This document shows positions 2,196 through 60,551 of a stretch of DNA of 64,000 nucleotides, in pieces. The notes beneath the pieces were generated by a model, which saw only the letters and a program-made list of their open reading frames with translations, made no database searches and was not told the DNA's origin. The stretch covers positions 1 through 64,000 of IMG/VR virus record IMGVR_UViG_3300044692_000050; one strand, 5' to 3'. The number at the start of each line of letters is the position of its first letter. Position 1 is the stretch's first letter. Source of the stretch: a virus. A program made the translations under genes and the position numbers.

Positions 2196-2795
2196 ATGGA
2201 CTCGACAGAAAGCGTCACCGTGGGCAAACGCCGGCTGGTGACGATGAATCAGATCGTCGCCTGGAACATGGCCTGGTACCGCCGCGAAGCAGGGATGACT
2301 CAGCAGCAGGTCGGCGACCACCTCGGATGGACCGCCCGCGCCGTATCCGAGGCCGAGCGGTCATGGGACAGCGGCAGGACGCGCGAATTCGACGCCCAGC
2401 TTCTGGCCGACCTCGCCGCGATCTTCGAGGTGCCCGTGATCGCGTTCTTCCTGCCGCCCGACGAGACCGACGGAGAGCTGCGCTACCCGTCGCCCGGGTC
2501 TGCCGGCGAACTGGACATGACGGATCTCATGTGGATCGTCATGCATGACAACGACAGCGAAGGCCCGGCGATGGAGGCGTTCCGCACCCGCATCCTCACC
2601 GCCGCCCGGGCCCGGCTGACGCCGGAGTGGGCGGAAGAAGTGGCCCGCTGGCTGAAGAAAGTCACCCCGGACTCCTTCATCGAGGACCAGGCCGCCATCT
2701 GGGAGTCCGAGGAGGCGTCCCTTGAGCGATCCCGAGACCGGGCCGGCCAGATGGCGCGAGCGCTCAGGGCCGTGCTGAAGGGCGAGCTGAAGTGA
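2196..2795 (+). CDS. XRE-family HTH regulator coupled to integrase
   Basis: YRREAGMTQQQVGDHLGWTARAVSEAERS HTH; GTGA overlap with int. Confidence 0.85.
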   Translation: MDSTESVTVGKRRLVTMNQIVAWNMAWYRREAGMTQQQVGDHLGWTARAVSEAERSWDSGRTREFDAQLLADLAAIFEVPVIAFFLPPDETDGELRYPSPGSAGELDMTDLMWIVMHDNDSEGPAMEAFRTRILTAARARLTPEWAEEVARWLKKVTPDSFIEDQAAIWESEEASLERSRDRAGQMARALRAVLKGELK

Positions 2796-4192
2796 AAGGC
2801 GACTCCATATACAAGCGGTGCAAGTGCAAGGATCCGGAGACCAAGAAGGAACTCGGCTCCGACTGCCCCGATCTGAAGCGCAAGGACGGGACGTGGAGTT
2901 CCAGGCACGGAACGTGGTACTTCTCGCTCGAGCTGCCGAAGGGTCCGGGTAATAAACGGCAGCCGAGGATGCGCCGCGGCGGGTTTGACAAGCGCGAGGA
3001 CGCCGAGGAGGCCCGCGAGAAGGCGCTGGCCGTCCTGCGCGAGGGCGTCGACCCGTCGAACCGGATGACGGTCGGCGCCTACCTGACCGAGTGGCTAGCC
3101 GGCCGCGTCAACCTGAAAGCAACCACGCGGCATAACTACGAGGCCAGCGTCAATACCTACCTGATCCCCCTGCTCGGCCACATCGAGCTCCAGCGGCTGA
3201 CGCCCCTGCACATCTCGCGCGCCTTCGCCACGATCCGCGAGTGGAACGACGACCTCGCCGCAGGGCGGCCGGTGCGGAAGTTCCAGCGCCACGTCGGCCC
3301 GGCCGCGATGCAGCGGATCCGCCACGTGCTGCGGTCCGCGCTCCGCGACGCCAAGCGCGCCCGGCTCGTCACGTACAACGCCGCCGAGGACGTGGACATG
3401 GAGCCGGAGCCGTCACGCAAGCCGGAGATCTGGACCGCCGAGCGGGTGCGGCAGTTCTGGCGCGACCACGAAGCCGCGCTCAAGCAGTCCCCGCTCACCC
3501 GCGGGGACCGGGCGTTCCTGGTGTGGCGGTCGCTCAAGCTGCGCCCGTTCCTGGTGATGATGTGGACGATCGAAGACCTCGGCGCGTTCCTGGACTACGC
3601 CGAGGGCAAGACGTTCGAGACCAGGACGCTGGCCGCGCTGTTCGAGCTCGCTGTCGCGACGGGAATGCGCCGCGGGGAACTGTGCGCGCTGCCATGGGCC
3701 AATGTCGACCTTGACAGGGGCGCGCTCTACGTCACCACGGCAGCGGTGCGGGCCGGCCGGCAGGTCATCCAGGGAGGACCGAAGACGGACAAGGGCCACC
3801 GCCGCGTCCCGCTCGCCGCGCAGGACGTGGCGCGGCTGAAGGCACACCGTGCCGCGCTGGCGAGGCAGCGGCTCGAGTACGGGCCCGGCTGGACGGAGAC
3901 AGACCTGGTGTTCACCCGGCTCGACGGCAAGCCGTGGCATCCTGACGCCATCACGAGTGCTTTCGAGCGGACGGCGTTTGCCGCGCACCTGCCGCCGGTC
4001 GGGTTCCACAGCCTGCGGCACGCGCACATCACCTACCTCTACGCGGCGAAGGTGGCCGAGCACGTGATCTCGGACCGGGTGGGCCACTCGGGCAAGAGGA
4101 TGACCCAGGCGTACGCCGCGGTGGCCGAGGAGATCTCGCACGAGGCGGCCGAGGCGGTCGCGGCGATGGTCCCGAGGCGGTCCGCGCGGTGA
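2792..4192 (+). CDS. int: Tyrosine integrase
   Basis: TGMRRGELCAL (R), PKT (K), HSLRH, RVGHS...TQAYA (H, Y); N-terminal arm-binding domain. Confidence 0.97.
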   Translation: MKGDSIYKRCKCKDPETKKELGSDCPDLKRKDGTWSSRHGTWYFSLELPKGPGNKRQPRMRRGGFDKREDAEEAREKALAVLREGVDPSNRMTVGAYLTEWLAGRVNLKATTRHNYEASVNTYLIPLLGHIELQRLTPLHISRAFATIREWNDDLAAGRPVRKFQRHVGPAAMQRIRHVLRSALRDAKRARLVTYNAAEDVDMEPEPSRKPEIWTAERVRQFWRDHEAALKQSPLTRGDRAFLVWRSLKLRPFLVMMWTIEDLGAFLDYAEGKTFETRTLAALFELAVATGMRRGELCALPWANVDLDRGALYVTTAAVRAGRQVIQGGPKTDKGHRRVPLAAQDVARLKAHRAALARQRLEYGPGWTETDLVFTRLDGKPWHPDAITSAFERTAFAAHLPPVGFHSLRHAHITYLYAAKVAEHVISDRVGHSGKRMTQAYAAVAEEISHEAAEAVAAMVPRRSAR

Positions 4193-9435: not shown

Positions 9436-10068
9436 CTACCATCCCCAGGTACGCCGCGAGCGGTTGCGGTCGCGGTGCGCCTCGGTGAGCTTCTTGCTCC
9501 ATGACTGCTGCCAGTCCACGCGCCGCCCGTAGGAGCGGTGGAGCCGGGTCATCAGCGGCAGGTTGTCCTCGCACAAGTCGGGCCAGATGTCGTGCCATGC
9601 CACGTCCCAGCGGACCCCGGCCGGCCAGTTCTTCGCCTGCTCGTAGGCGTCGGCGTGGTGGCAGGTCACTCGCGGGCCGGCGTAGTGCGGGCCGACCAGT
9701 TCGATCACCCGCTCGTCGACCTCCACCACGTCAACGTGCTCGACGTGCTCGAAGGAAAGAGCGGCAGCGAGGACCATGCCCAGCCCGAGGCCGTTGATGA
9801 GGACGCGCTTGGCCTGCCGGGACTGGATGGCGCGGACGGCTTCCATGTGGTCGCGCTTCTCGGCATCGGTGTCGCTCATCCAGAGCCGGCCGCCGTCGTA
9901 GAGCGCGGTGTAAGTGCCGGGACGCGTCTGCCGTCCGCCCTTCCAGGCGAGGCGCATGTTCTCGAAAGAGTCGGGCTCCACGGTGAACCGCTTGACCCGC
10001 AAGGTGCCGATTGCGCCCTCGGGAACCGTGACGGTCATCGCATCATAGGGGCTCGTCATGGTGGTCAT
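9436..10068 (-). CDS. Class I SAM-dependent methyltransferase (spermidine-synthase-like fold)
   Basis: VLINGLGLG, VDVVEVD, HADAY and WDVAWHDIW motifs. Confidence 0.85.
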   Translation of the reverse strand: MTTMTSPYDAMTVTVPEGAIGTLRVKRFTVEPDSFENMRLAWKGGRQTRPGTYTALYDGGRLWMSDTDAEKRDHMEAVRAIQSRQAKRVLINGLGLGMVLAAALSFEHVEHVDVVEVDERVIELVGPHYAGPRVTCHHADAYEQAKNWPAGVRWDVAWHDIWPDLCEDNLPLMTRLHRSYGRRVDWQQSWSKKLTEAHRDRNRSRRTWGW

Positions 10069-10103
10069 GAGGCAACTCTAACTGAGAACATTGTTCGCGT
10101 CAA
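10069..10103 (-). promoter_or_regulatory. Sigma70-type leaderless promoter with palindrome in spacer
   Basis: TTGACG-N17-TAGAGT-N6-ATG; GAACATTGTTC at 10086-10096. Confidence 0.75.
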
Positions 10104-10148
10104 TCCGTACAGCTTGGTTCGCAAACATAGTTGTGGCAAACTAGACGC

Positions 10149-10370
10149 ATGGAACCTGATGAGAGGCTGGAACGGATCAGGAAGGCGCGGGTCGTCTACG
10201 ACCGCGCCAGAGCGAATCTGTTCCGCGAAATCCGCGACGGCCTGGCCGAAGCCGCACAGCTCCCCGAGAACCAGCAGCGAAAGCTCGGCCCCTCGGCGAT
10301 TCACCGGGCCTCCGGCTTCACCCGCGAGTACATCGCCAAGATCCGCGATGGCAAGGCAGACCCCAGCTAG
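10149..10370 (+). CDS. Small HTH DNA-binding protein
   Basis: LGPSAIHRASGFTREYIAKIRDG; divergent from the methyltransferase. Confidence 0.7.
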   Translation: MEPDERLERIRKARVVYDRARANLFREIRDGLAEAAQLPENQQRKLGPSAIHRASGFTREYIAKIRDGKADPS

Positions 10371-10502
10371 ATAACGACGACGAGACCGGCCACTCCGACC
10401 AAGAAGACAGCCGGCCCCGTCGCCCACTCCCATCTCTAGGAGCGTGTCCATCATGCCATCCGACGCTGCCGCTACCCTGCGTGCCGTCAGGCGGTTACCC
10501 GG

Positions 10503-11069
10503 TTGACCCCGGAAAGCACTCTCTGTCACCTCGGGCTCGCGGCCGACAGGTGCGCTTACGAGCACGTCGCTGCCCGCGTGCCGAAGGGCACCCAGGGCGA
10601 CAAGTCCAACCGCTCGTGCCCGTGCCACGACGACCGCAAGGCGTCGCTGTCCATCAACCCTGGCGACCGGGGCATGCGCGTCGTCTGGCGCTGCAACGCG
10701 GGCTGCTGGTTTGAGGACATCCGCGTCGCGCTGCTCGGCCTCGGCATCCATGAATCCTGCCTCGGAACCTACGGCCTGCCGAAACGCACCGTCGTGCCGG
10801 GCATGCGCACCACGACCGCGGACCTGGCCGTCATCGCCGACGCCAAGCGCTACCAGGCCGTCAGGAAGCTCCCGGTCAAGCTGAGCGACTCGCTGCGGCT
10901 CATGTGCATTCAAGCCATCAGCGAGGGAGACGGGGACCTGCCGGGCGATCCTTACGAGTTGCTGCCCGTGAACCTGGACGACTTCCGGGCGCTGGCCATG
11001 CGGGCGGGGATCGAACGGGGCTACACCTACCGCGTCTTCAGGCAGTGGATGGCTTACGGTGCAGCCTAG
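10503..11069 (+). CDS. Primase-type Zn-finger plus C-terminal HTH-like protein (paralog A)
   Basis: CPCHDDRKASLSI...WRCNAGC; homologous to 37820..38614. Confidence 0.75.
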   Translation: MTPESTLCHLGLAADRCAYEHVAARVPKGTQGDKSNRSCPCHDDRKASLSINPGDRGMRVVWRCNAGCWFEDIRVALLGLGIHESCLGTYGLPKRTVVPGMRTTTADLAVIADAKRYQAVRKLPVKLSDSLRLMCIQAISEGDGDLPGDPYELLPVNLDDFRALAMRAGIERGYTYRVFRQWMAYGAA

Positions 11070-11169
11070 GTCCGTAGTGCTAACACCCAACCCAACCGTA
11101 GTACTTACAGGCTCCCGAGCGGTGAAGTCAAGCCGCGCAGGTAGACGCCTCGGGCCGAATCCGAAAACC

Positions 11170-11231
11170 TGTGCACTAAGTGCGCACCCTGTGAACAAAG
11201 TGCACGAGGCTGGCTGTGCACTAAGTGCACA
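11170..11231. repeat. Three palindromic repeats TGTGCAC-N3-GTGCACA
   Basis: Copies at 11170-11186, 11190-11206 and 11215-11231. Confidence 0.85.
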
Positions 11232-11412
11232 CGTCCCCGCGCTCCGTCCGAGCCCGGCTAGCCCCCTACTCGTCGCTGCCATCTCTAGCCCTCGCCGTCC
11301 TCTTCGCTGCCGTCATCCGGCACCAGCACCTCACAGAGCCCGTATCCGGCCGGTCGGCAGATCAGGTCCGGCCCGTGGTCGGCGTGACGGTACAGGACAG
11401 GCTCAGGCGCGC

Positions 11413-24282: not shown

Positions 24283-25178
24283 CGCAGGCCGTCCCCGCTG
24301 AACCCTGCCGTCTTGGCCTGGATGGCCCTGCGGACAGCCTCGGCCTTCTCCGGGGCCATCGCGCCGGAGGCGGCCACCTCGTCAAGCTCGGCTTCGGCCC
24401 GCTGGCCGTCGTCGGCGCTCGCGATGCCGTCGATCCGGTCGGCCCAGTCGCCGAGGTCTGCGTCCGGTCCGTCCTCGGCACCCTCGTCCTGCGCGGCCGG
24501 GTCGTCGCTGCGCCCGATGACCTCGGCAACGGTTACCCTGCCGCTGCGCCGGGCCTGCGCGGGTGCCCCGCCAAGATCCTGCGGCAGCTCCTCCTCGATG
24601 TAGACGCCGCCGAGGTCATGCGGGAAGGCGCGGCGCAGCGCGAACGCCTCGGCGCACTTCTCGATCTGGTGCGCGGGCGCGTCCCGCCACTTCCCGGTGG
24701 GCGATCCGTTCTTGCTCTGCACGTACTCGCTAAACCGCAGGGTTCCGGGGTAGCGCCGGCCGTTCTTCAGGACGGTCACGGTGCATCCGGACGGCGGCTC
24801 GTTCTGGAGCCAGATCTTGTGCTCGCCGCCGCTGGCGTCGTACCAGATGGTGTCCTCATACTCGACCTCGATGCCGAGCCGCTCGGCGGCCCGGTCGCGG
24901 ATGACCCGGAAGCCCTCGATGCCGACCTGGATCGTCTGCTTGTCGATCCACTGGTCGCCGCGCCGTTCCTGGCGGCAGATCATGTAGATCTGCTTGGAGA
25001 ACGGGTCCAGCCCGGTCTTCTGGCAGTAGTGCATGAACACGGCCAGGTCGGCGCTGGAAGCGTTCTTGATGCCGAGCGCGGTCAGCGCAGCCCGCTGCTT
25101 GGGCGTCCACATCTCCTGGCCGGGACGGATGGCCAGGGCGGCGGTCGGCTGGTAGGTGTCGATCGCGGTGACGGTCAT
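24279..25178 (-). CDS. recT: RecT/Bet-family single-strand annealing protein
   Basis: FMHYCQKTGLDPFSKQIY, IQVGIEGFR, W...P..QIEKCAEAFALRRAFP. Confidence 0.9.
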   Translation of the reverse strand: MTVTAIDTYQPTAALAIRPGQEMWTPKQRAALTALGIKNASSADLAVFMHYCQKTGLDPFSKQIYMICRQERRGDQWIDKQTIQVGIEGFRVIRDRAAERLGIEVEYEDTIWYDASGGEHKIWLQNEPPSGCTVTVLKNGRRYPGTLRFSEYVQSKNGSPTGKWRDAPAHQIEKCAEAFALRRAFPHDLGGVYIEEELPQDLGGAPAQARRSGRVTVAEVIGRSDDPAAQDEGAEDGPDADLGDWADRIDGIASADDGQRAEAELDEVAASGAMAPEKAEAVRRAIQAKTAGFSGDGLR

Positions 25179-26047
25179 TCGAAGTCCTCCCCCGTGCGCT
25201 GCGCCCACGGCGGCAGCGAGATGTACGTGATGTCGTTGTCCGAGTAGCCGGGCCAGTAGCCGGCGGCGGTGCAGTCGCGGAAGATCTCGGCGGCGGTGCG
25301 CATCCGGTCGCGCCCGGCCTCGATCGCGCCGTCCTCCAGGCCGATGACGTTGACCAGGTAGGGCGCGGCCTTCTCTTGCACGATGAACAGGAACGCCGGG
25401 TCGTCGTCGAGCCCGAGGGCGCGCACGCCGTCGATGTACTGGGCGGCCTGCATGTGGTAGCTGAACTTGGCGGCGGCCCTGCGGAAGCTCTCCGCGTCGG
25501 CCGCCACAGCGGTCTTGTAGTCGGGGATCACGAGGCGGCGGCCCGGCGAGACGTCGGGCAGGAAGTCCAGCCGCGCCCGCCGCCAGATGCCGGTCTCGTC
25601 GTCCTCCCAGAACAGGGACTGCTCGGGCTTGCCGTGCTCCCGGTCGAGCAGCACGGACGCCACGGGGTGCTTGCGGAGGGTGTCCGCCATCGCGACGATC
25701 ACCAGCCACTCGTGCGGCAGGACCGGGACGTAGCCGTTCTCGCGCGCCTCGGCCGCGGCGTCCTTTGCCTTCTTGGTGCGCCAGTCGGGCGCGTCCACGA
25801 CGGTGACGTCAGGCCCGGATCCGAGGACCATGCGGTGCGCGGCGGTGCCGAACTCGAAGCTGTCCTTCGGCGGCGGCGGGTTCTGGCGCTCGTGCCAGAA
25901 CCGGGCCGGGCATGACGGCGGCAGCAGGAGCTTCGCGCCGGACGCCGACAGCGAGCCGCCCGGAACCGGGTCGCCGTGGTACTCGTCCTCCGGCATCCCG
26001 TCGCGGACGCCAGCGGTGAAGGCGGGAGCCTCGGCTAGCGCCGTCAT
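25175..26047 (-). CDS. recE: RecE-like PD-(D/E)XK exonuclease (DUF3799-like)
   Basis: YHGDP...LSASGAK, FGTAAH, EQS..W, RARLD, DYKT and YHMQAAQY motifs. Confidence 0.9.
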   Translation of the reverse strand: MTALAEAPAFTAGVRDGMPEDEYHGDPVPGGSLSASGAKLLLPPSCPARFWHERQNPPPPKDSFEFGTAAHRMVLGSGPDVTVVDAPDWRTKKAKDAAAEARENGYVPVLPHEWLVIVAMADTLRKHPVASVLLDREHGKPEQSLFWEDDETGIWRRARLDFLPDVSPGRRLVIPDYKTAVAADAESFRRAAAKFSYHMQAAQYIDGVRALGLDDDPAFLFIVQEKAAPYLVNVIGLEDGAIEAGRDRMRTAAEIFRDCTAAGYWPGYSDNDITYISLPPWAQRTGEDFE

Positions 26048-26274
26048 GCCGCCACCCTTCCCTGCTGGCCGCTGGCCTCGATCAGTCGTGCGTGCGCCGC
26101 CCTGATCGCCTCCACGTCCGGTGCTGTCCACTGCTCGCCCCGGTACGTGTCGGTGTGGTCCCTGATGAGGTCCCACACGCCGGACCGGGCGGCGTTCAGT
26201 TCCGGCGTCCAGGACAGTCCCCCGGTCTCCCGGTAGGTCGCGTGGGCGGTGAGGACGGCCTGAGCGGCGGTCAT
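26044..26274 (-). CDS. Hypothetical protein
   Basis: Coupled ORF. Confidence 0.55.
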   Translation of the reverse strand: MTAAQAVLTAHATYRETGGLSWTPELNAARSGVWDLIRDHTDTYRGEQWTAPDVEAIRAAHARLIEASGQQGRVAA

Positions 26275-26759
26275 GACGCCGCTCCGGCAAGGCGGTATTT
26301 CCTGGCCATGTCCCGCATCGCGGCGAGGATGACCTCTTCCTCTTCCGGGCTGCTGCCGAGGATGGCGGCAACGTTGGCGAACCCGTCGCCGATCCGCGCG
26401 TACGTCTTGGCCCCGGCTATGTCGTTACGCGGGTTCGCCCACGCCCAGAACGCGTGGTGGCTGGCATCCAGCTCGGCCCACACGTCCATGTACTGCTGGT
26501 ACGGGTCGGTGTCCGGGGCGGGCTTACCCGGCTCCGGGGCGGGTTCCGCGACGGCCGGAGACGCGGCCTTGGCGACGCACACGTTGCACGTCCACTGCTC
26601 GCCCGCGTGCATCCAGCCCGCACCGAGGGCGGCGGGGCGCATCGACTCGGCCATCACCCTGGACACGGCCTCGGTCCCGGCGGCGAACAGGGCACCGCAC
26701 GGGCTGCACTGGATCTGCCGTGAGGTCACGGCCGGGAAGGCCGTGGTGTCGTCGCTCAT
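26271..26759 (-). CDS. Hypothetical Zn-binding protein
   Basis: CSPC...GW...CNVC. Confidence 0.6.
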   Translation of the reverse strand: MSDDTTAFPAVTSRQIQCSPCGALFAAGTEAVSRVMAESMRPAALGAGWMHAGEQWTCNVCVAKAASPAVAEPAPEPGKPAPDTDPYQQYMDVWAELDASHHAFWAWANPRNDIAGAKTYARIGDGFANVAAILGSSPEEEEVILAAMRDMARKYRLAGAAS

Positions 26760-36701: not shown

Positions 36702-37769
36702 TCAGGGGCGGTCATGCTGGCCCCCGTACTTCCCAACGTGCCGCAGGGCCTCTGTCGCGCAGCGCCGGGCATCGCGGTGCACCTCGCTTCCGCCGAACCT
36801 GACAATGCGCCATCCGGACTCTTCGAGTAGGCGCTGGCGCTGCCGGTCCCTGGCGATATCCGTCGGGCTGGAATGCGTAGCATGCCCGTCGATCTCAAAC
36901 CCGACCTTGACGCCGGGACCGACTCTCTCCGTCAATGCGAAGTCCAGGAAGAAGTTCCTTCCCTTGACAGTGACCGGGAACTGCGGCGCGAGGATGGCGG
37001 CCAGATCGGGCGGCCACACGTCCTTGCATGCCCGCAAGAACATCTGCTCGACAGGAGAGCCGAGGGCAGGGCCGGCCGCCGTGACGGAGAACAGGGTCAG
37101 GCGGAAGGCTCCCTTGTGGCTGGCCGACAGGAGCGCGAGGCGCGTGCCGCAGGCGCAGACCATCGTGATGACGTTGTAGCCCCCGCAGGTCTCCAGGGGA
37201 TTGCTGGGTTCGTAGCGCCTTTGATCCGGATGAGCGAAGACGTTCGCGCCGACGCCGCCCGCGATTGAGCTGTCACCGCAGCGCGGGCAGAGCAGGTCCC
37301 CATCTGGAGAGAACCTGAGAGGCCGCTTCGCCCATACCCAGGAACCCGGCTCCCCTTCCGGTGGCCCCCAGGCCGCGGGCCATGCGGGGAAGTCCGGGTG
37401 TAGCCGGTACGACTTTCCGTTGCCGACCGCGGGCGTTTCCTCGGCAGGGTCCCCGTCGGCCACCTCATCGGCGTACCGTCCATCGCGAAGCCAGCTCGAC
37501 GCATGGGGGATGTACTTGGTTTCGGTGCCGTTCTCACGGCATTTGACAGCGAACCGCCTGGCCGCGTCGATGATCTCGTCGGAGTTGCCGCTCTTGCGGG
37601 TCACCCGCTGCCACAGCCTCTGCGCGCCCGCCTTGCCGATCTTGCGCGGGTAGGCAGCCCAGAACTCATCGAACTTCGGGTCGGGCGTCGTGCGGCGACG
37701 TCGCCCTGCCGACGCCTCGACGGGGATCACGCTGAGCCCGTAGTTGGGATCACTCTCGCTGGGGGTCAT
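36702..37769 (-). CDS. Fusion: replication-protein C-terminal domain + Zn ribbon + DUF559 endonuclease
   Basis: FDEFWAAYPRKIGK...IPHASSWLRDGRY; CPRC; SPVE...LDFA..GFEIDGH..H...DRQRQR.L...GWRIVRFGGSEV. Confidence 0.82.
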   Translation of the reverse strand: MTPSESDPNYGLSVIPVEASAGRRRRTTPDPKFDEFWAAYPRKIGKAGAQRLWQRVTRKSGNSDEIIDAARRFAVKCRENGTETKYIPHASSWLRDGRYADEVADGDPAEETPAVGNGKSYRLHPDFPAWPAAWGPPEGEPGSWVWAKRPLRFSPDGDLLCPRCGDSSIAGGVGANVFAHPDQRRYEPSNPLETCGGYNVITMVCACGTRLALLSASHKGAFRLTLFSVTAAGPALGSPVEQMFLRACKDVWPPDLAAILAPQFPVTVKGRNFFLDFALTERVGPGVKVGFEIDGHATHSSPTDIARDRQRQRLLEESGWRIVRFGGSEVHRDARRCATEALRHVGKYGGQHDRP

Positions 37770-37800
37770 ACTGCTGGCCTCCTGCTCCTGGCCTGGGGTT

Positions 37801-37966
37801 TTATCATTTTGATAATCGCCTACGCTGCCGGTTTCGTCATGCCTGCCGAGCGCAGGGCCTCCAGCGCCGCCGCCTCCATCGCGGCATTATCATTTTGATA
37901 ATCGTTCGGGGCCGAATCATTATCACTTCGAGAATCCGACCCCCCTGGCTCTATCAAATTGATAAT
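37801..37966. repeat. Four palindromic repeats TTATCA-N3-TGATAA
   Basis: Copies at 37801-37815, 37886-37902, 37919-37935 (degenerate) and 37951-37966. Confidence 0.85.
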
Positions 37967-38614
37967 GCCCGCATCCTCAGTGACCTGCGAAGCTTGACGC
38001 TCGTCTTCAGGCTGTGTTAGTACAACGTGGTCTGGAATTACCGCGCTCTGACCCTTGGCCTTCACTAGAGGGTCGGTCCCCCAGAGGCGGTAGGCACTGG
38101 GCTTCGGAACTCCGGCCCGCACCGCGAAGCTGACATAATCCGCCTCGCTCCCGACGGGGACCTGGACTCCCTCAAAGGCAGCCAGGATGCGGATCTTCAG
38201 CAGTCCCATCTTCAGGTCCGAGTTCATCAGCCCCGTGACGCTCGCCTTGAGTTCCAGCATCTCCCAGCGCAGCCGCTCAACTTGCCTGTCCAACTCCCTG
38301 ATCTGGGCGCGCTCTGCGGCGTTGGACCGAACCTTGCGCTTCATCTCATACTCGGGCGTGCCGTAGGGGCCGAGAAACTCCTCGGACATACCGAGGCCGA
38401 GGAGTGCGGCGCGGACTACCTCGTCGTCGCAGCCGCCATGGCAGCAGAACACGACGGGGATCGCGTCGCCGGGCGCGATGGCGAATGACCGGCGCCGGTC
38501 GGCGTGCCCCGGAACGGGGCAGCGGGCGTAGTACTGGCCAGGCTTAGAGCCGGGAATAGCGCTCGGCAGGTAGCGCAGCACTTCGCTTGCGAACCACTGC
38601 GGGACAGCAACCAC
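37820..38614 (-). CDS. Primase-type Zn-finger plus HTH-like protein (paralog B)
   Basis: CPVPGHADRRRSF...CCHGGC...ALLGLG...RAGVPKPSAYR; homologous to 10503..11069. Confidence 0.75.
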   Translation of the reverse strand: MVAVPQWFASEVLRYLPSAIPGSKPGQYYARCPVPGHADRRRSFAIAPGDAIPVVFCCHGGCDDEVVRAALLGLGMSEEFLGPYGTPEYEMKRKVRSNAAERAQIRELDRQVERLRWEMLELKASVTGLMNSDLKMGLLKIRILAAFEGVQVPVGSEADYVSFAVRAGVPKPSAYRLWGTDPLVKAKGQSAVIPDHVVLTQPEDERQASQVTEDAGIINLIEPGGSDSRSDNDSAPNDYQNDNAAMEAAALEALRSAGMTKPAA

Positions 38615-38798
38615 ACACTCTCCGTCCTATCGGGTGAGAACGGAGAAAAACGTCCCGAAATGTTCCCGCGCGCCCTTGAAGCGGGCCGGCCTTGCGCGGG
38701 TACACTATGGGTGGCTGAATGTTCTTCAACGTTCTCGCGATGGCCCGGCGCCTATGAACGCCGGGCCTCGCTGCTGTAAAGGGTAATGCGCCCCTGCC

Positions 38799-56544: not shown

Positions 56545-56982
56545 ATGGGAGTTAAAGGGGCGGTCCCGAAGCGGACCGACCAGCTGCACGGCCACCGGAA
56601 GCCCCCGGCGACAGATAAGGCCCCGACTCCGCCCGGGGCGGCGTCGTACCGGCGCCCGGCGGCTGACAGCACGTGGCATCCGCTGGCGAAACGCTGGTGG
56701 AACGCCCTGAGCAAGTCGGGGCAGTCCACGTGGTACCAGCCGTCTGACTGGGAGCACGCCTACATCTGGGCGGAGATGCTGTCGCGGCAGCTGTTCTCAG
56801 CCAAGCCGTCTTCGATGATGCTGGCAGCATGGGATGCGGCATCGGTCCGGCTGCTGGTGACCGAGGGAGACCGTCGCAGGATGCGCATCGAGCTCGACAA
56901 GGGCGGCGAGGTCGATGCGGATAAGGAAGCCGCTGTAGCGAGCATGCAGGCGTGGCGTGCCAACCGCGCTAGCGGTTCCTGA
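56545..56982 (+). CDS. terS: Terminase small subunit
   Basis: GAVPKR...WHPLAKRWW..L..SGQ...YQPSDW...LLVTEGDRRRMRIEL; precedes terL. Confidence 0.85.
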   Translation: MGVKGAVPKRTDQLHGHRKPPATDKAPTPPGAASYRRPAADSTWHPLAKRWWNALSKSGQSTWYQPSDWEHAYIWAEMLSRQLFSAKPSSMMLAAWDAASVRLLVTEGDRRRMRIELDKGGEVDADKEAAVASMQAWRANRASGS

Positions 56983-58705
56983 CCGCCGCCTTCCTGCGCC
57001 GGCTGACCGGCTGATCACGCTCCCCGCGGGCGAACCTGAGCTGACGCTCGGCTGGCATGCGATCGTGTGGGCCGGGACGTACCTGAAGCACCCGAACGGG
57101 ATCCGGGCGGGGCTGCCGTGGAAGTACACCGACAGCCAGCGCGCTTTCGTTCTGTGGTGGTACGCGATCCACCCGGACGGCCGGTGGGTCTACCAGCACG
57201 GAGTGCGCCGCCGCAGCAAGGGCACTGGCAAGAGCCCGGGTGCGGCGACTCTGTCGCTGACGGAGCTGCTGGCGCCTGTCCGGTTCGCGGGGCTGGCCGA
57301 TACGGACGTGCCGTACCTGGAGGGGAACGGCAGGAACGGCCTCCCCGCCGGGTGGGTGCAGATCGGCCGGGTGATCGGCAAGCCGGTGGCGATGCCGCTA
57401 GTGCAGATCGCGGGTGTGTCCGAGGCCGCGACGGCGAACACGATGCGTCACGTCCGGGCGATGACGGCGAAGAACTCCAAGGTCGTCCAGGCGTACCACC
57501 TTGATCCGGGCAAGACGGTGATCTACACGCCGTCAGGCGGCCAGCTCGAGGTGATCACGTCGTCGGCGGCTTCGGCTGAGGGGGCCGAGGTGACCGCGGC
57601 GTTCCTCGACGAGCCGGAGCACTGGACGCCCGCGTCAGGCGGGGTTGAGCTCGCCGCGACGATCGACCGCAACCTGGCCAAGTCGGGGTCCCGGGCGATC
57701 GAGACGGCGAACGCGTGGGAGCCGGGCGCGGGGTCGGTGGCTGAGGCGACGTTCGAGGCGTGGTGCGCGCAGGAAGAAGGCCGCACGAAGTCAGGCGCGC
57801 TGATCCTGTACGACGCCGTGGTCGCGCCCCCGGACACGGACCTGGCCGACGAGGAGTCGCTGCGCAAGGGGATCGCGTTCGCCTATGACGACTCGGACTG
57901 GGTTGACCAGCAGGTCATCATGGACCGCATCCTGTCGCTGCGGACCAAGCCGGACGAGGCGCGGCGGTTCTACCTCAACCAGCCGGTGGCCAGCGCCGAT
58001 TCGTGGGTGACGCCGCAGGAATGGGCGGTCCTCGCCGATCCGACACAGGTCATCTGCGATGGCGATGAGATCGTAGCGTTCTTCGACGGCTCATCCAGCC
58101 GGGACGCGACGGCCTTGATTGCCTGCCATGTCGAGACGGGCTATGTGTTCACGGTCGACATATGGGAGCCGGAGCCGGGCCCGTCGCATTCTCCGGGAGC
58201 GGCCCGCATCCCGGTCGCCGAGGTCGACGCTGCGGTTGAGCGGATGTTCGACCGGTGGCAGGTCTGCGCGTTCTTCGCTGACGTGAAGGAATGGGAGTCC
58301 TTCGTCAAGGTGACCTGGCCGGAGCGGTACGCGGAGCAGCTAGAGCTCCACTCGGTGCCGTCGGGCAAGGACCCGCAGGCCATCGCCTGGGACATGCGGA
58401 CGCACACCTACGAATTCACGCTGGCCGCCGAGCTCACCTTGACGGAGATCACGGGCGACACCGGGCCCGCGTTCCGTCATGACGGGGATTCGCGGCTAGG
58501 TCGGCATGTGGTCAACGCCCGGCGGCATCCGAATCGGTGGGGCGTCTCGATCGCCAAGGAATCGAAGGATTCGCCAAAGAAGATCGACGCGGCTGTCTGC
58601 ATGATCGGGGCGCGGCTAGCACGCAGGCTGCTGCTGGCCGAGCGCGCTAAGCAGCAGCAGAAGGCGAAGAAGCCCAGGTCAGGTAGGGTTCACGGCTTCG
58701 CTTAG
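56957..58705 (+). CDS. terL: Terminase large subunit
   Basis: Walker A RRSKGTGKS; LDEPEHW; RRFYLNQ; FFDGS...DATAL; KKIDAAV. Confidence 0.95.
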   Translation: MPTALAVPDRRLPAPADRLITLPAGEPELTLGWHAIVWAGTYLKHPNGIRAGLPWKYTDSQRAFVLWWYAIHPDGRWVYQHGVRRRSKGTGKSPGAATLSLTELLAPVRFAGLADTDVPYLEGNGRNGLPAGWVQIGRVIGKPVAMPLVQIAGVSEAATANTMRHVRAMTAKNSKVVQAYHLDPGKTVIYTPSGGQLEVITSSAASAEGAEVTAAFLDEPEHWTPASGGVELAATIDRNLAKSGSRAIETANAWEPGAGSVAEATFEAWCAQEEGRTKSGALILYDAVVAPPDTDLADEESLRKGIAFAYDDSDWVDQQVIMDRILSLRTKPDEARRFYLNQPVASADSWVTPQEWAVLADPTQVICDGDEIVAFFDGSSSRDATALIACHVETGYVFTVDIWEPEPGPSHSPGAARIPVAEVDAAVERMFDRWQVCAFFADVKEWESFVKVTWPERYAEQLELHSVPSGKDPQAIAWDMRTHTYEFTLAAELTLTEITGDTGPAFRHDGDSRLGRHVVNARRHPNRWGVSIAKESKDSPKKIDAAVCMIGARLARRLLLAERAKQQQKAKKPRSGRVHGFA

Positions 58706-59033: not shown

Positions 59034-60551
59034 ATGGCGCTCTCCCCCGACCAGGTGCCGGACGTGGCGACCCGCGTCCTCGCGATGCGGGAACGGGAGC
59101 AGTACCGCCTCCGTCGCATCAGTGACTACATGCGCGGCAAGCACGCGTCCGTTTACGTCCCCAACGGGGCCCGGTCGGAGTACAGGTGGCTCCTCGAACG
59201 GTCCGTGGTCAACTTCCTGCCCCTGGTCGTCAGCGTCATCAGCCAGAATCTCCACGTAGACGGGTATCTCCCCGTCCACGTAGACGGAGACGCCGCCGAT
59301 TCAACGACGACAGGATCCAGCTCCCCTGAGAAGGATCCCGCCAACCCGTGGTCGATCTGGCTGGCCAACCGGATGAACGCCCGCCAGCACGGGTTGCACC
59401 GCGCGGTCGTCAAATACGGCGTGGCCTACACAGTGGTGCTGCCGGGCGACCCGCAGCCGGTGATGCGGCCGGTGTCCCCGCGACGCATGACCGCGCTGTA
59501 CGCCGACGACGTAGATGATGAATGGCCCGTGTACGCCGTCGAAGAACGCGTGATCCGCAACGACAAGGGCGCGATCAGGCAGATCTGGTTCTACGACGAC
59601 AACTGCCGGTACACCCTCGTCGGCAAGGAGAATGACCCGCGCCTTTACTGGCCGGATGACAGCAGTCTCCTCGGTTCCGGATGGGAGGGCGTCCCGTCCG
59701 GGGAACCGATGATCGAGGAACACGGCCTCGGCGTGTGCCCGGTCGTGCGCTTTCTCCATGACGTGGACCTTGACGGCGAGATGGACGTCTCCGGCGAGGT
59801 CGAGCCCCTGATTCCTTTGCAGGATCAGGTAAATACAACCACTTTTAATACCCTGATGGCGCAACAATATGCGGCATTCAGGCAGCGGTGGGTCACCGGA
59901 ATGGTCCCGGATGATGAGGACGGCCGACCCCGCGAGCCGTTCCGCGCGGGGGTTGACAGGCTATTCGTCGCGGAAGACACGGACACTAAATTCGGTGAAT
60001 TCGGCGAGACCAGCCTTAACCCTTTCCTGGACGCGCGGGAAGCGTCGATAAGGCACATGTCAACCGTCGCGCAGGTGCCCCCTTATCATCTTTTGGGACA
60101 AATGATAAACTTGAGCGCCGAAGCGCTCGCTGCTAGTAAAGACGGAATGGACCGGAAATGTCAGGAGCTTGAGTCCGTCCTTTCTGAGCCCCATAAGCAG
60201 AATCTTCGCCTAGGTGGACTGGCGGCCGGCAACAAAGCGGCGTGGGAGGACACCACCTCCACCATCGCCTGGCGCGACACTTCTGCTCGCGCGTTCGCCG
60301 CGACCGCCGACGCCCTCGGCAAGGTCGCCCAGATGCTAGGCGTGCCGGCTACGGAACTCTGGTCGCGCATCCCTGGCGTCAGCGCCGAGGAGGTCGCGCG
60401 CTGGAAAGAAGTCGCCTCCAGGCAGGGCCCGCTTAACGAACTCAACCGGCTCCTTGAGGCCCAGATGACGCACGGAGTGCAGACTCAGGGGCCGCCGACA
60501 GAGGCTGAACCATTCCAGGCTCCCGCTTTGGGGAGGACCAAGGGGGTCTAA
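59034..60551 (+). CDS. Portal protein (SPP1 gp6-like)
   Basis: Position after terL; N...VV...L.VDGY, HGLGVCPVV.F, AAFRQRW, NLSAEAL, WRD. Confidence 0.93.
   Translation: MALSPDQVPDVATRVLAMREREQYRLRRISDYMRGKHASVYVPNGARSEYRWLLERSVVNFLPLVVSVISQNLHVDGYLPVHVDGDAADSTTTGSSSPEKDPANPWSIWLANRMNARQHGLHRAVVKYGVAYTVVLPGDPQPVMRPVSPRRMTALYADDVDDEWPVYAVEERVIRNDKGAIRQIWFYDDNCRYTLVGKENDPRLYWPDDSSLLGSGWEGVPSGEPMIEEHGLGVCPVVRFLHDVDLDGEMDVSGEVEPLIPLQDQVNTTTFNTLMAQQYAAFRQRWVTGMVPDDEDGRPREPFRAGVDRLFVAEDTDTKFGEFGETSLNPFLDAREASIRHMSTVAQVPPYHLLGQMINLSAEALAASKDGMDRKCQELESVLSEPHKQNLRLGGLAAGNKAAWEDTTSTIAWRDTSARAFAATADALGKVAQMLGVPATELWSRIPGVSAEEVARWKEVASRQGPLNELNRLLEAQMTHGVQTQGPPTEAEPFQAPALGRTKGV

Follow-up and report, generated by a model that had tools for sequence, protein, structure and literature searches.

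The locus at positions 10,503 to 11,231 of the IMG/VR record IMGVR_UViG_3300044692_000050 raises the question of why a phage should carry, in duplicate, a small protein with a primase-type zinc finger that is followed each time by a set of private palindromes. The window analysed here comprises the first 64,000 nucleotides of this record, and both modules, A and B, reside in a temperate soil-actinomycete phage with a 102-kb, 98%-complete genome, which encodes an integrase and also carries plasmid-like transfer genes. We find that this phage contains two diverged copies of an undescribed cassette of about 0.85 kb, composed of a small primase-zinc-finger/HTH protein, a conserved DNA core with promoter-like features and palindromes of its own. 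As judged from sequence, the cassette is most likely a replication-origin or switch module.

Gene A (10503..11069, plus strand, 188 aa, TTG start, GC3 0.89) has 106 homolog clusters and encodes a primase-type CHC2 zinc ribbon (approximately residues 12-86), a linker, and a five-helix C-terminal domain with a helix-turn-helix (HTH) whose helices correspond to residues 158-167 and 172-187 of an AlphaFold2 model (pLDDT 90.3). The first-pass annotation had proposed a primase-type zinc finger joined to an HTH, and the ribbon is upheld by several matches. The sole family match of both A and B is to the N-terminal zinc-finger part of PHROG 6088 'DNA primase' (1.4e-7 for A, 5e-5 for B), A shows a weak PDB-sequence profile match to the primase zinc-binding domain 1d0q (E 0.0037) and a weak match to the zinc-binding domain of T4 gp61 (Z 3.8), and the four zinc ligands (C39, H42, C64 and C68) are near-invariant. 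The Pfam family PF01807 is reached by neither A nor B, and by more distant B-like proteins at E 2e-4. The accompanying claim that both proteins are devoid of TOPRIM, primase and helicase domains likewise holds: no Toprim family match was recovered in A, in B or elsewhere in the phage, no AAA_25, DnaB_C or D5_N-type helicase or helicase-binding domain was found in A (188 aa) or B (264 aa), and the model shows only the five-helix domain after the ribbon. In fold searches, neither the whole model nor the C-terminal domain alone drew more than weak HTH-type matches (MarR/SlyA, KorA, sigma region 4; E above 1, Z <=4.5). Pfam, NCBIfam and PADLOC searches of A and B gave no match, and it is because these collections hold no model for the family, which forms about 60 clusters at 50% identity, that its members are annotated as hypothetical everywhere.

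The ribbon of A and B is homologous to the CHC2 zinc ribbon of DnaG-type primases and phage primase-helicases, and the distant relatives of the two proteins are either primase-helicase N-termini or short zinc-ribbon proteins encoded just upstream of P-loop (Walker A) genes, the helicase identity of the latter being read by eye from the translated start. Searches of IMG/VR and the GTDB species genomes yielded distant zinc-ribbon-only matches, mostly primases, none with the core, and phage and plasmid record collections yielded primase N-termini only. The N-terminal zinc ribbons of the Streptomyces phage primases of JustBecause and Kela show up to ~56% identity over 43 aa, and gp39 of the Arthrobacter phage JuneStar shows 29% identity over A residues 39-181. 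JuneStar gp39, however, continues into Toprim, D5_N and DUF5906 helicase domains, whereas A and B continue into the HTH domain.

Gene B (37820..38614, minus strand, 264 aa) is a paralog of A with the zinc ribbon and HTH in residues 1-180. The earlier proposal that the two ORFs align along their length proved right as to their kinship (BLASTP: 31% identity, E 2e-16, over A39-179 / B34-178); they do not align end to end, since B carries an extra tail of about 85 residues. This 85-aa tail is translated across the module's own core and three of its four palindromes, and GC3 within it drops to 0.4-0.55. It is still retained as protein in 17 clusters, all 17 B-family proteins being 255-271 aa long with an open and conserved tail. 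The gene following the array of B (36702..37769, minus strand) combines a replication-initiation-protein domain (phrog_270, 9474, 9327) with a DUF559/MTES_1575 nuclease-like domain, the match to the phrog_270 'replication initiation protein' profile lacking the first ~140-170 of its 383 positions. It is the sole replication-annotated gene found in the 102-kb genome, and its product is likely to be a partner of B.

The second component of the cassette is the conserved core, 45-60 bp in length. Fourteen of the 14 distinct metagenomic relatives of A with enough 3' flank display the layout CGTAGTACTTACA, 17 nt, GTCAA. The spacer is thus fixed at 17 nt in these 14 loci, is 16 nt in L116 and B, and is free in sequence. 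In module A the core (11086-11142), read on the plus strand, comprises CCCAACCCAACCGTAGTACTTACA at 11086-11109, the spacer at 11110-11126, GTCAA at 11127-11131 and GCAGGT at 11137-11142. In module B it spans 37983-38027 (core profile 30 bits, E 2.8e-7), reading CGTTGTACTAACA-N16-GTCAAGC..GCAGGT on the minus strand. The pattern GTACTWACA-N16/17-GTCAAGC has exactly two matches, at 11101-11133 (plus) and 37992-38023 (minus), with 0 expected in 100 shuffles, and a core sequence profile recovered those two sites only, 723 kb of other loci being searched. This pattern search bears out the first-pass view that the same core follows both genes, outside the ORF in A, where it starts 28 nt past the stop codon, and inside the ORF in B. 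A degenerate copy of box 1, GTAGTGCTAACA, lies at 11074-11085 (plus strand), 24 nt before box 1, and relatives carry CCGTGGTGC at the corresponding position. The possibility that the core is conserved for its coding content was considered and rejected: VVLT is encoded over box 1 in both modules, but with spacers of 17 nt in A and 16 nt in B the frame is no longer shared at the second box. The shared constraint therefore acts on the DNA, as had been proposed.

The strand opposite the gene gives this core a different aspect, which had gone unremarked in the earlier annotation: it has promoter anatomy aimed back into the gene. There the A-family core reads TTGAC-N17-TGTAAGTAC, with a perfect -35 box and a spacer, both sigma-70-like, and an atypical -10. 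In A the minus strand carries TTGAC-N17-TGTAAGTACTACGGTTGGGTTG directed into gene A, and in B the plus strand carries TTGACG-N16-TGTTAGTAC, equally promoter-like and directed into gene B. The core may be a promoter that would fire back into the gene, even though the -10 region (TAAGTA / TAGTAC) lacks the usual final T and the site was not picked up by a consensus promoter scan. Past the -10, conservation over the first ~25 nt equals that of the promoter boxes, and the first ~20 nt of the putative transcript are conserved and G-rich in the A family.

Other candidate identities for the core were discarded. Pairing in the core spacer (GCGG/CCGC in A, GAAG/CTTC in B) was, by eye, absent in the other 14 loci, which speaks against an RNA hairpin. 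Rfam gave no family at the gathering threshold in the window, and chance-level miRNA matches only (E above 0.2) in 10300-11350. The 34 matches to the core pattern in IMG/VR are all attributable to chance, as the contigs concerned have a GC content of 32-44% and lack an A-like gene. Inspection by eye of the cassette for attP, dif, parS, LexA and DnaA boxes found none that fits, the sole DnaA-box-like half-site (TTGTCCAC) being that of L116.

The third component is the palindrome array. Array A (11170-11231) contains three 17-bp palindromes of type I, TGTGCAC-N3-GTGCACA, at offsets from the core that are conserved across loci: O1 at 11170-11186 (1 mismatch), O2 at 11190-11206 (2 mismatches) and O3 at 11215-11231 (perfect). 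The nearest of them starts 39 bp beyond the TTGAC box. Array B (37800-37966) contains four AT-rich palindromes, ATTATCA-N3-TGATAAT (0.08 expected), at 37950-37966 and 37919-37935 (2 mismatches each), 37886-37902 (perfect) and 37800-37816 (1 mismatch); the first three lie at +57, +88 and +121 from the core, parallel to the A family, and the fourth ends the array about 30 nt ahead of the start of the phrog_270-domain gene. No further copies of either pattern occur at <=2 mismatches in the 102-kb genome, so that the private nature of these repeats, three in A and four in B, of like geometry and unrelated sequence, is established genome-wide. The coordinates given in the first-pass annotation proved accurate. 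Array B lies in a region of ~50% GC, among the lowest 120-bp windows of a genome with ~65-72% GC per kb. In module A, AT-richness is confined to a local stretch of the core (GTAGTACTTACA), and the array region falls outside the 15 windows of lowest GC.

The idea that each protein has co-diverged with its own repeats within an uncharacterised family gains support from the downstream flanks. All 14 of the 14 distinct relatives with enough 3' flank carry three palindromes of the same geometry at fixed offsets beside the core, with four sequence types among them, and the palindrome type tracks the C-terminal recognition helix rather than the remainder of the protein. Type I and type II loci are perfectly separated by six alignment columns, five of which lie in the last 22 residues, with C-terminal signatures of ERGYAYRVYKQW..AY and ERRYRYELYKRW..RS, respectively. 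Pairs of different type reach up to 79% identity over residues 8-166 and only 35-67% in the C-terminal 22, whereas pairs of the same type with 58-64% identity over residues 8-166 show 55-85% in the C-terminal 22. In a tree of the N-terminal part the palindrome types are not clustered. The association could partly reflect physical linkage, since helix and palindromes, only ~100-150 bp apart, could recombine as one block. That A and B are the protein halves of self-contained protein-DNA cassettes, in which a sequence-specific binder is predicted to act on its cognate array, is well supported. Whatever its function, the family constitutes a natural series for an HTH recognition code, with helix variants paired to operator variants.

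An independent line of evidence comes from homing nucleases. The DNA-binding C-terminal domain of A is also fused to GIY-YIG nucleases in other contigs (P0153, P0174, P0187, P0178, P0162), the version in P0153 sharing 71% identity with A residues 112-179 and having the same recognition helix. In L121 a gene for such a nuclease has displaced part of an A-type cassette, namely the 3' half of its gene together with the core and two palindromes. These fusions and this replacement independently support the proposal that the C-domain targets the arrays. The family also illustrates clearly how a homing nuclease takes its DNA-binding domain from the very locus that it invades. In comparison to modular GIY-YIG homing endonucleases of the I-TevI type, A and B are devoid of the nuclease domain, and no GIY-YIG domain was detected anywhere in the phage.

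Cassette A is a sharply bounded unit of 854 bp. In more than 25 similar metagenome loci, those reaching upstream of the gene show nucleotide similarity beginning at 10377-10386, directly past the stop of a variable upstream gene. The right edge is formed by O3, as similarity to loci of the same type stops at 11231. Upstream alignments place at the left edge a GC-rich stem with a CCAAGAA-type loop, both conserved (10378-10419, plus strand), in the leader of gene A. Further along the same strand lie a ribosome-binding site, AGGAG (10438-10442), and a leader ORF of 17 codons (10453-10506). The TGA stop of this ORF overlaps the TTG start of gene A, and the two are probably translationally coupled. 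The leader peptide MPxxxAGTPRAxRRL is retained in L094, L096, L107, L109 and other loci. The small gene upstream of A, outside the conserved cassette (10131-10370, plus strand, 79 aa), is replaced by a different small gene in other loci, sometimes an HNH endonuclease (P0129, L112). The cassette is oriented opposite to the long early operon that contains it. The neighbourhoods of the A family contain HIT-like, methyltransferase and small unknown genes, with no replication signal and no gene with the phrog_270 domain. The 854-bp boundaries, the conserved 5' leader and the DNA-binding domain common to GIY-YIG nucleases are features that the first-pass annotation had missed.

As to function, our preferred guess, to which we would assign a probability of roughly 0.4, is that modules A and B are initiator-plus-origin cassettes. 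It is suggested by the primase-type ribbon, by the position of B before the only replication-type gene, and by the apparent lack of further replication genes, since AAA_25, DnaB_C, DNA_pol_A, Toprim_3 and Prim-Pol were all absent from six-frame searches of this 98%-complete genome. Under such a scheme the HTH domain would bind the palindromes as a dimer, these serving like dyad iterons of the lambda type, and the conserved zinc ribbon and/or host RNA polymerase would act on the core, which would be the site of opening and/or transcriptional priming. The unit would thereby recruit the host replisome to a phage without a helicase, primase or polymerase of its own. In module B the downstream replication-initiation-domain protein would be the replisome organiser, and module A would provide a second origin, orphan or alternative, with a different specificity. 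Counted against this interpretation are the zinc ribbon without a catalytic partner, the absence of a replication hint among A-family neighbours, the missing final T of the -10 and the restriction of an AT-rich array to module B. GC skew gave no clear origin signal. If the cassettes are origins, they would offer a compact portable initiator-origin unit (~0.85 kb) for high-GC actinomycetes with at least five orthogonal specificities already, useful for compatible vectors, and would help to explain how DNA synthesis starts in large temperate actinophages without replication enzymes.

Precedents for an origin beside an initiator gene of matching specificity are established in lambda O, SPP1 G38P, SaPI Rep, ColE2 Rep and P4 alpha. 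The lambda O and SPP1 G38P systems resemble A and B in that a binder gene adjoins three to four dyad repeats ~2-3 helical turns apart, in that repeat specificity varies between related phages (in our families, too, gene-adjacent repeats vary with the DNA-binding part, as a sequence correlation), and, for B, in the ensuing protein with the C-terminal domain of phage 'replication initiation proteins' (phrog_270). They differ in showing no sequence or fold match to A and B, whose binder carries a primase zinc ribbon, and whose repeats follow the gene instead of lying within it and are adjoined by a promoter-like core pointing into the gene. In the Rep-ori systems of SaPI and ColE2 and in alpha-ori/crr of P4, the initiator gene has its origin directly 3' of it or beside it, and a C-terminal DNA-binding domain determines specificity; these initiators, however, possess helicase and/or primase catalytic domains, which A and B lack. 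Among actinophages, cluster A mycobacteriophages, which are extrachromosomal with parABS, have prophage origins that are RepA-dependent or RNA-based, the latter requiring a transcript antisense to a dispensable ORF (Wetzel et al. 2020, PMC7157519). Like modules A and B, these are small replicon cassettes, and the direction of repA transcription is opposite to that of the neighbouring genes. They differ in that their RepA proteins (320-350 aa, pMSC262 type) are unrelated to A and B and no palindrome arrays are reported for their origins in PMC7157519, and the present phage, for its part, has an integrase.

The strongest rival, which we regard as somewhat doubtful, is a regulatory switch that takes no direct part in replication, in which the protein would bind operators centred near -83, -103 and -128 and control a core promoter running antisense through its own gene, so that convergent transcription would give rise to feedback or bistability. 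Expression of the downstream replication-type operon would likewise be under its control in module B, a proposal with which the fourth palindrome ahead of that gene agrees. Three 17-bp dyad sites 20-34 bp apart form a classic repressor-operator layout, TTGAC followed by a spacer of fixed length and free sequence is a hallmark of promoters, the orientation of cassette A against the surrounding early operon is often seen with immunity-type genes, and the elaborate conserved 5' leader with its upstream ORF points the same way. P1 repL and phage 186 are known cases in which phage replicons and switches are under antisense control. A switch nevertheless accounts neither for a primase zinc ribbon as the conserved partner domain nor for the conservation of the ~25 nt past the -10, which is itself atypical, and a putative transcript from the B core would run ~1.6 kb antisense before reaching any co-oriented gene. 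The OR and OL regions of lambdoid CI/Cro are comparable in their three 17-bp near-palindromes with short spacers and in the joint swapping of helix and operator specificity. The operators of A and B, by contrast, lie off the promoter-like boxes at the 3' end of the gene; there is no divergent promoter pair, the core being convergent with the gene, and searches of A and B for XRE/CI-family membership gave no match.

A more elaborate version of the origin idea, which we consider rather unlikely, envisages a new kind of minimal replicon, in which a dimeric HTH would anchor the ribbon at a built-in promoter for host RNA polymerase, whose transcript would be a primer or R-loop that the zinc ribbon would capture and pass to the host replisome. 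GIY-YIG homing nucleases would have captured the DNA-binding domain of the initiator to home into origins, thereby driving the diversification of palindromes and recognition helices.

Less probable still is a conflict or selfish cassette, in which the free zinc ribbon would act as a decoy or inhibitor against a primase-helicase, be it the host's or that of a rival phage (as in superinfection exclusion), with the HTH and array serving only autoregulation or tethering. Palindromes and helices would then have diversified in an arms race against homing nucleases bearing the same DNA-binding domain. The sharp cassette boundaries across varied phage contexts, the GIY-YIG fusions with matching recognition helices, the partial replacement of the cassette in L121 and the variable, sometimes HNH-encoding, upstream gene would suit it, but PADLOC and NCBIfam defence models give no match, the conserved core and the fixed register between core and palindromes are left without an account, and B shares an operon with a replication-type gene. 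Partition systems of the parS/ParB type and packaging systems of the pac/TerS type typically have arrays of repeats next to the gene of the protein that binds them, and the phage has plasmid-like transfer genes. Yet a centromere-like or packaging-recognition site with its binding protein is highly improbable, as the cassettes do not adjoin a gene for a ParA/ParM-type NTPase, such systems contain nothing that corresponds to the promoter-like core, and both cassettes lie ~19-46 kb from the terminase gene at 56957-58705.

The virus record is 102,340 bp long (98% complete according to CheckV), and the window covers its first 64 kb. The phage is temperate, tailed and high in GC, with an integrase (2792-4192), a RecE-like exonuclease (25175-26371) and a large terminase (56957-58705). 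A single long minus-strand block, composed mostly of small early genes, extends from ~5 kb to 39.6 kb. Two genes, namely A (10503-11069, +; 188 aa, GC3 0.89) and B (37820-38614, -; 264 aa), had been aligned as a two-copy set in the first-pass annotation, and this holds: residues 39-179 of A align with residues 34-178 of B at 31% identity (E 2e-16). Neither protein matches Pfam, NCBIfam or PADLOC, and the sole match of both, PHROG 6088 "DNA primase", is confined to the first ~60-100 profile positions. The 106 homolog clusters of A show, with few exceptions, 48-78% identity over the full length; almost all are of ~186-190 aa and from soil metagenomes, one being named Streptosporangiaceae. Searching 1.84 billion representatives with a profile recovered ~60 clusters of the full architecture, besides thousands that have just the zinc ribbon. 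No curated family covers proteins of this type, and no publication describing them was found. Systems that pair a DNA-binding protein with adjacent repeats of its own are well known; the novelty lies in the domain combination, the promoter-like core shared at a fixed register, and the nuclease relatives.

The AlphaFold2 model of A (104 sequences; pLDDT 90.3) comprises a small zinc-ribbon domain (residues 12-86), whose residues C39, H42, C64 and C68 are near-invariant among relatives, and a C-domain of five helices (residues 106-188), in which a helical hairpin precedes a helix-turn-helix (HTH). The zinc ribbon weakly resembles primase zinc-binding domains (1d0q, E 0.0037; T4 gp61, Z 3.8). Neither the whole model nor the C-domain alone retrieved a fold match above Z 4.5, and the weak matches were to HTH regulators, sigma region 4 and dimerising helical hairpins; the C-domain is therefore called HTH-type by anatomy rather than by family membership.

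Both genes are accompanied by the same DNA core, of two boxes and a spacer, as had been proposed earlier: GTACTWACA-N16/17-GTCAAGC occurs at exactly two sites, 11101-11133 (+) and 37992-38023 (-), against 0 expected. A metagenome scan located 26 loci with full-length A relatives, 14 of them distinct and with sufficient 3' flank. In all 14, CaAcCcaAcCGTagTACTTACA is present 23-55 nt past the stop codon, followed by a spacer of 17 nt without conserved sequence and then by GTCAA. A sequence profile of the core gives scores of 59 bits for A and 30 bits for B, with no further site in 723 kb of loci encoding more distant zinc-ribbon proteins. In the B family, all 17 proteins of which are 255-271 aa long, the tail is kept as protein: box 1 is covered by, for example, DHVVL, box 2 by SQAxQV and one palindrome by NDYQNDN; the more distant B-like clusters P0163 and P0165 have HVVL/YVVL and a Q-x-x-x-V motif at unchanged spacing. 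In A the corresponding DNA is non-coding, and the frame of the second box differs between the two; the shared constraint is therefore on DNA, overlaid in B with coding. At the protein level, the change of NDYQNDN to forms such as DSRNEN in B relatives is compatible with paired changes in both palindrome arms.

Read antisense to the gene, the boxes run TTGAC, 17 nt, then TGTAAGTACTACGGTTGGGTTG. This is the anatomy of a sigma-70-type promoter, with TTGAC and a fixed-length, free-sequence spacer; however, the canonical TAnnnT -10 is absent in every register (TAAGTA in A; TAGTAC in B and the metagenome locus L116). A consensus promoter scan did not call the site; it called an ordinary promoter, TTGACG-17-TAGAGT, at 10103-10075 (-), just upstream of a methyltransferase gene (9436-10068). 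The genome's lowest-GC 120-bp stretch (10041-10160) coincides with the divergent promoter region around 10075-10103. The conserved stretch reaches ~20 nt beyond the -10 and includes a degenerate second box copy 24 nt on (11074-11085). We prefer to read the core as a putative promoter, a bipartite protein-binding site being the less favored alternative. As a promoter, it would start near 11095 and send an antisense transcript across gene A, the copy in B would likewise be transcribed antisense across gene B, and the palindromes would be centered near -83, -103 and -128.

Beyond the core lie the palindromes, at 11170-11186, 11190-11206 and 11215-11231 (O1-O3) in A, and at 37950-37966, 37919-37935, 37886-37902 and 37800-37816 in B. 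The details of the first-pass annotation on ORFs, core and palindromes proved correct wherever checked; at <=2 mismatches, neither pattern has a further match in the whole 102 kb. A-family loci carry three 17-bp palindromes at nearly fixed offsets from the core (~+66, +87 and +112 to +121), and the first three of B lie at +57, +88 and +121, so that the register is common to both paralog families. The palindromes themselves differ: TGTGCAC-N3-GTGCACA (type I) in A of the window, L094, L096, L102 and L112; TGTCAGA-N3-TCTGACA (type II) in eight loci; AGTGGAA-AAA-TTCCACT (type III) in L104; TGTCCAC-N3-GTGGACA (type IV) in L116; and ATTATCA-N3-TGATAAT (type V) in module B. Half-sites as in B, at a different spacing, recur in TTATCA-N14-TGATAA (60083-60108), which lies in a low-GC region separating the terminase gene from the protease gene.

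The earlier proposal that homologs carry the core plus variable palindromes co-varying with the HTH is supported on both counts, the former in 14 of 14 distinct A-family loci. Of six alignment columns that discriminate perfectly between type I and type II proteins, five fall within the last 22 residues, where the forms are GIERGYAYRVYKQW..AY in type I versus GIERRYRYELYKRW..RS in type II. Across types, two proteins may be up to 79% identical over residues 8-166 yet share only 35-67% in the C-terminal 22, whereas same-type pairs with as little as 58-64% over residues 8-166 retain 55-85%. In a maximum-likelihood tree of the N-terminal part, types cluster no more than with shuffled labels, type I needing 3 changes (as low in 71 of 500 shuffles) and type II 4 (110 of 500). 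Since the C-terminal 22 residues track type while the N-terminal tree does not, helix and array travel as a pair, independent of the remaining protein. Block recombination alone could account for part of this association, because the two flank the conserved core at a distance of only ~100-150 bp from each other. The reading of A and B as sequence-specific DNA binders, each with a private array cognate to it, is well supported, with a probability that we put at roughly 0.85.

The same profile search also yielded the A C-domain fused to a GIY-YIG nuclease domain, with the DNA-binding domain first in clusters P0153, P0174, P0187 and P0178 and the nuclease first in P0162. P0153 is 71% identical to residues 112-179 of A and has the same recognition helix. 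In the metagenome contig L121 (VFSW01338895.1, 1-1433), an A-type zinc-ribbon ORF is truncated after ~88 codons and is followed by a gene for such a fusion (403-1086) and a single type II palindrome, the core being absent. This looks like a homing-endonuclease gene that invaded an A cassette and took the place of its 3' half, and it lends independent support to the C-domain being aimed at these arrays. A homing nuclease with the same domain offers a possible selective reason for array diversification. Between two C-domain helices of A-family proteins lies a near-invariant acidic loop, EGDGDLPGDP (residues 141-150 of A), which is absent from B, retained in most GIY-YIG fusions, and may bind metal. 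In some relatives, the gene immediately before the A-type one encodes an HNH endonuclease (L112:2-289), and in P0129 the two are called as one ORF.

Nucleotide similarity to metagenome loci starts at 10377-10386, directly past the stop of a variable upstream gene, and extends in same-type loci to 11231, where O3 ends, but in other-type loci to ~11109-11142 (the core end); the conserved unit is thus 10378-11231, or 854 bp. Its leader (10378-10506), conserved in relatives, contains a GC stem whose loop is of the CCAAGAA type, plus an AGGAG site and a 17-codon ORF, the stop of which overlaps the TTG start of A (peptide MPxxxAGTPRAxRRL in relatives). A CUCC...GGAG pairing could mask the ribosome-binding site. 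In four long loci (L095, L102, L109 and L113), the cassette is oriented opposite to the flanking early genes.

The distant relatives are of two kinds. One comprises the N-termini of primase-helicases, for example gp39 of Arthrobacter phage JuneStar (zinc ribbon, Toprim, D5_N and DUF5906); the other consists of short zinc-ribbon proteins directly upstream of genes with a P-loop (Walker A) motif at the translated start, which by eye appear helicase-like. Six-frame searches of the whole phage did not find AAA_25, DnaB_C, DNA_pol_A, Toprim_3 or Prim-Pol. The single match to phrog_270 "replication initiation protein" (37431-37769) lies ~30 nt past the last palindrome of B and spans only positions 139-254 of the 383-position profile, the usual N-terminal part therefore missing. 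It is a reasonable inference that module B is a split organiser, with B providing origin recognition. The A-family neighbors, namely a HIT-like gene, a methyltransferase and small unknown genes, lend no support to replication.

We tentatively favor an initiator-plus-origin cassette, at somewhat less than even odds, as the sole reading that uses the primase zinc ribbon, the partner gene of B and a phage without replication enzymes; protein-dependent and RNA-dependent origins are both documented in actinophage prophages (PMC7157519). A regulatory switch built on the antisense promoter accounts equally well for the promoter anatomy, orientation and leader, but leaves the zinc ribbon unaccounted for, and we judge it, as the main competitor, somewhat less probable. 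A conflict or decoy cassette is improbable, and a partition or packaging site very improbable indeed.

A likely promoter of B, TTGAAG-16-TAGTGT (38702-38729, -), read by eye, follows the hairpin at the end of the DUF397 gene; B would then head the long leftward operon. The frame of the replication-domain/DUF559 gene (36702-37886, -) is open for 394 codons, 39 of them beyond the ATG at 37769, and therefore runs open across the last palindrome of B.
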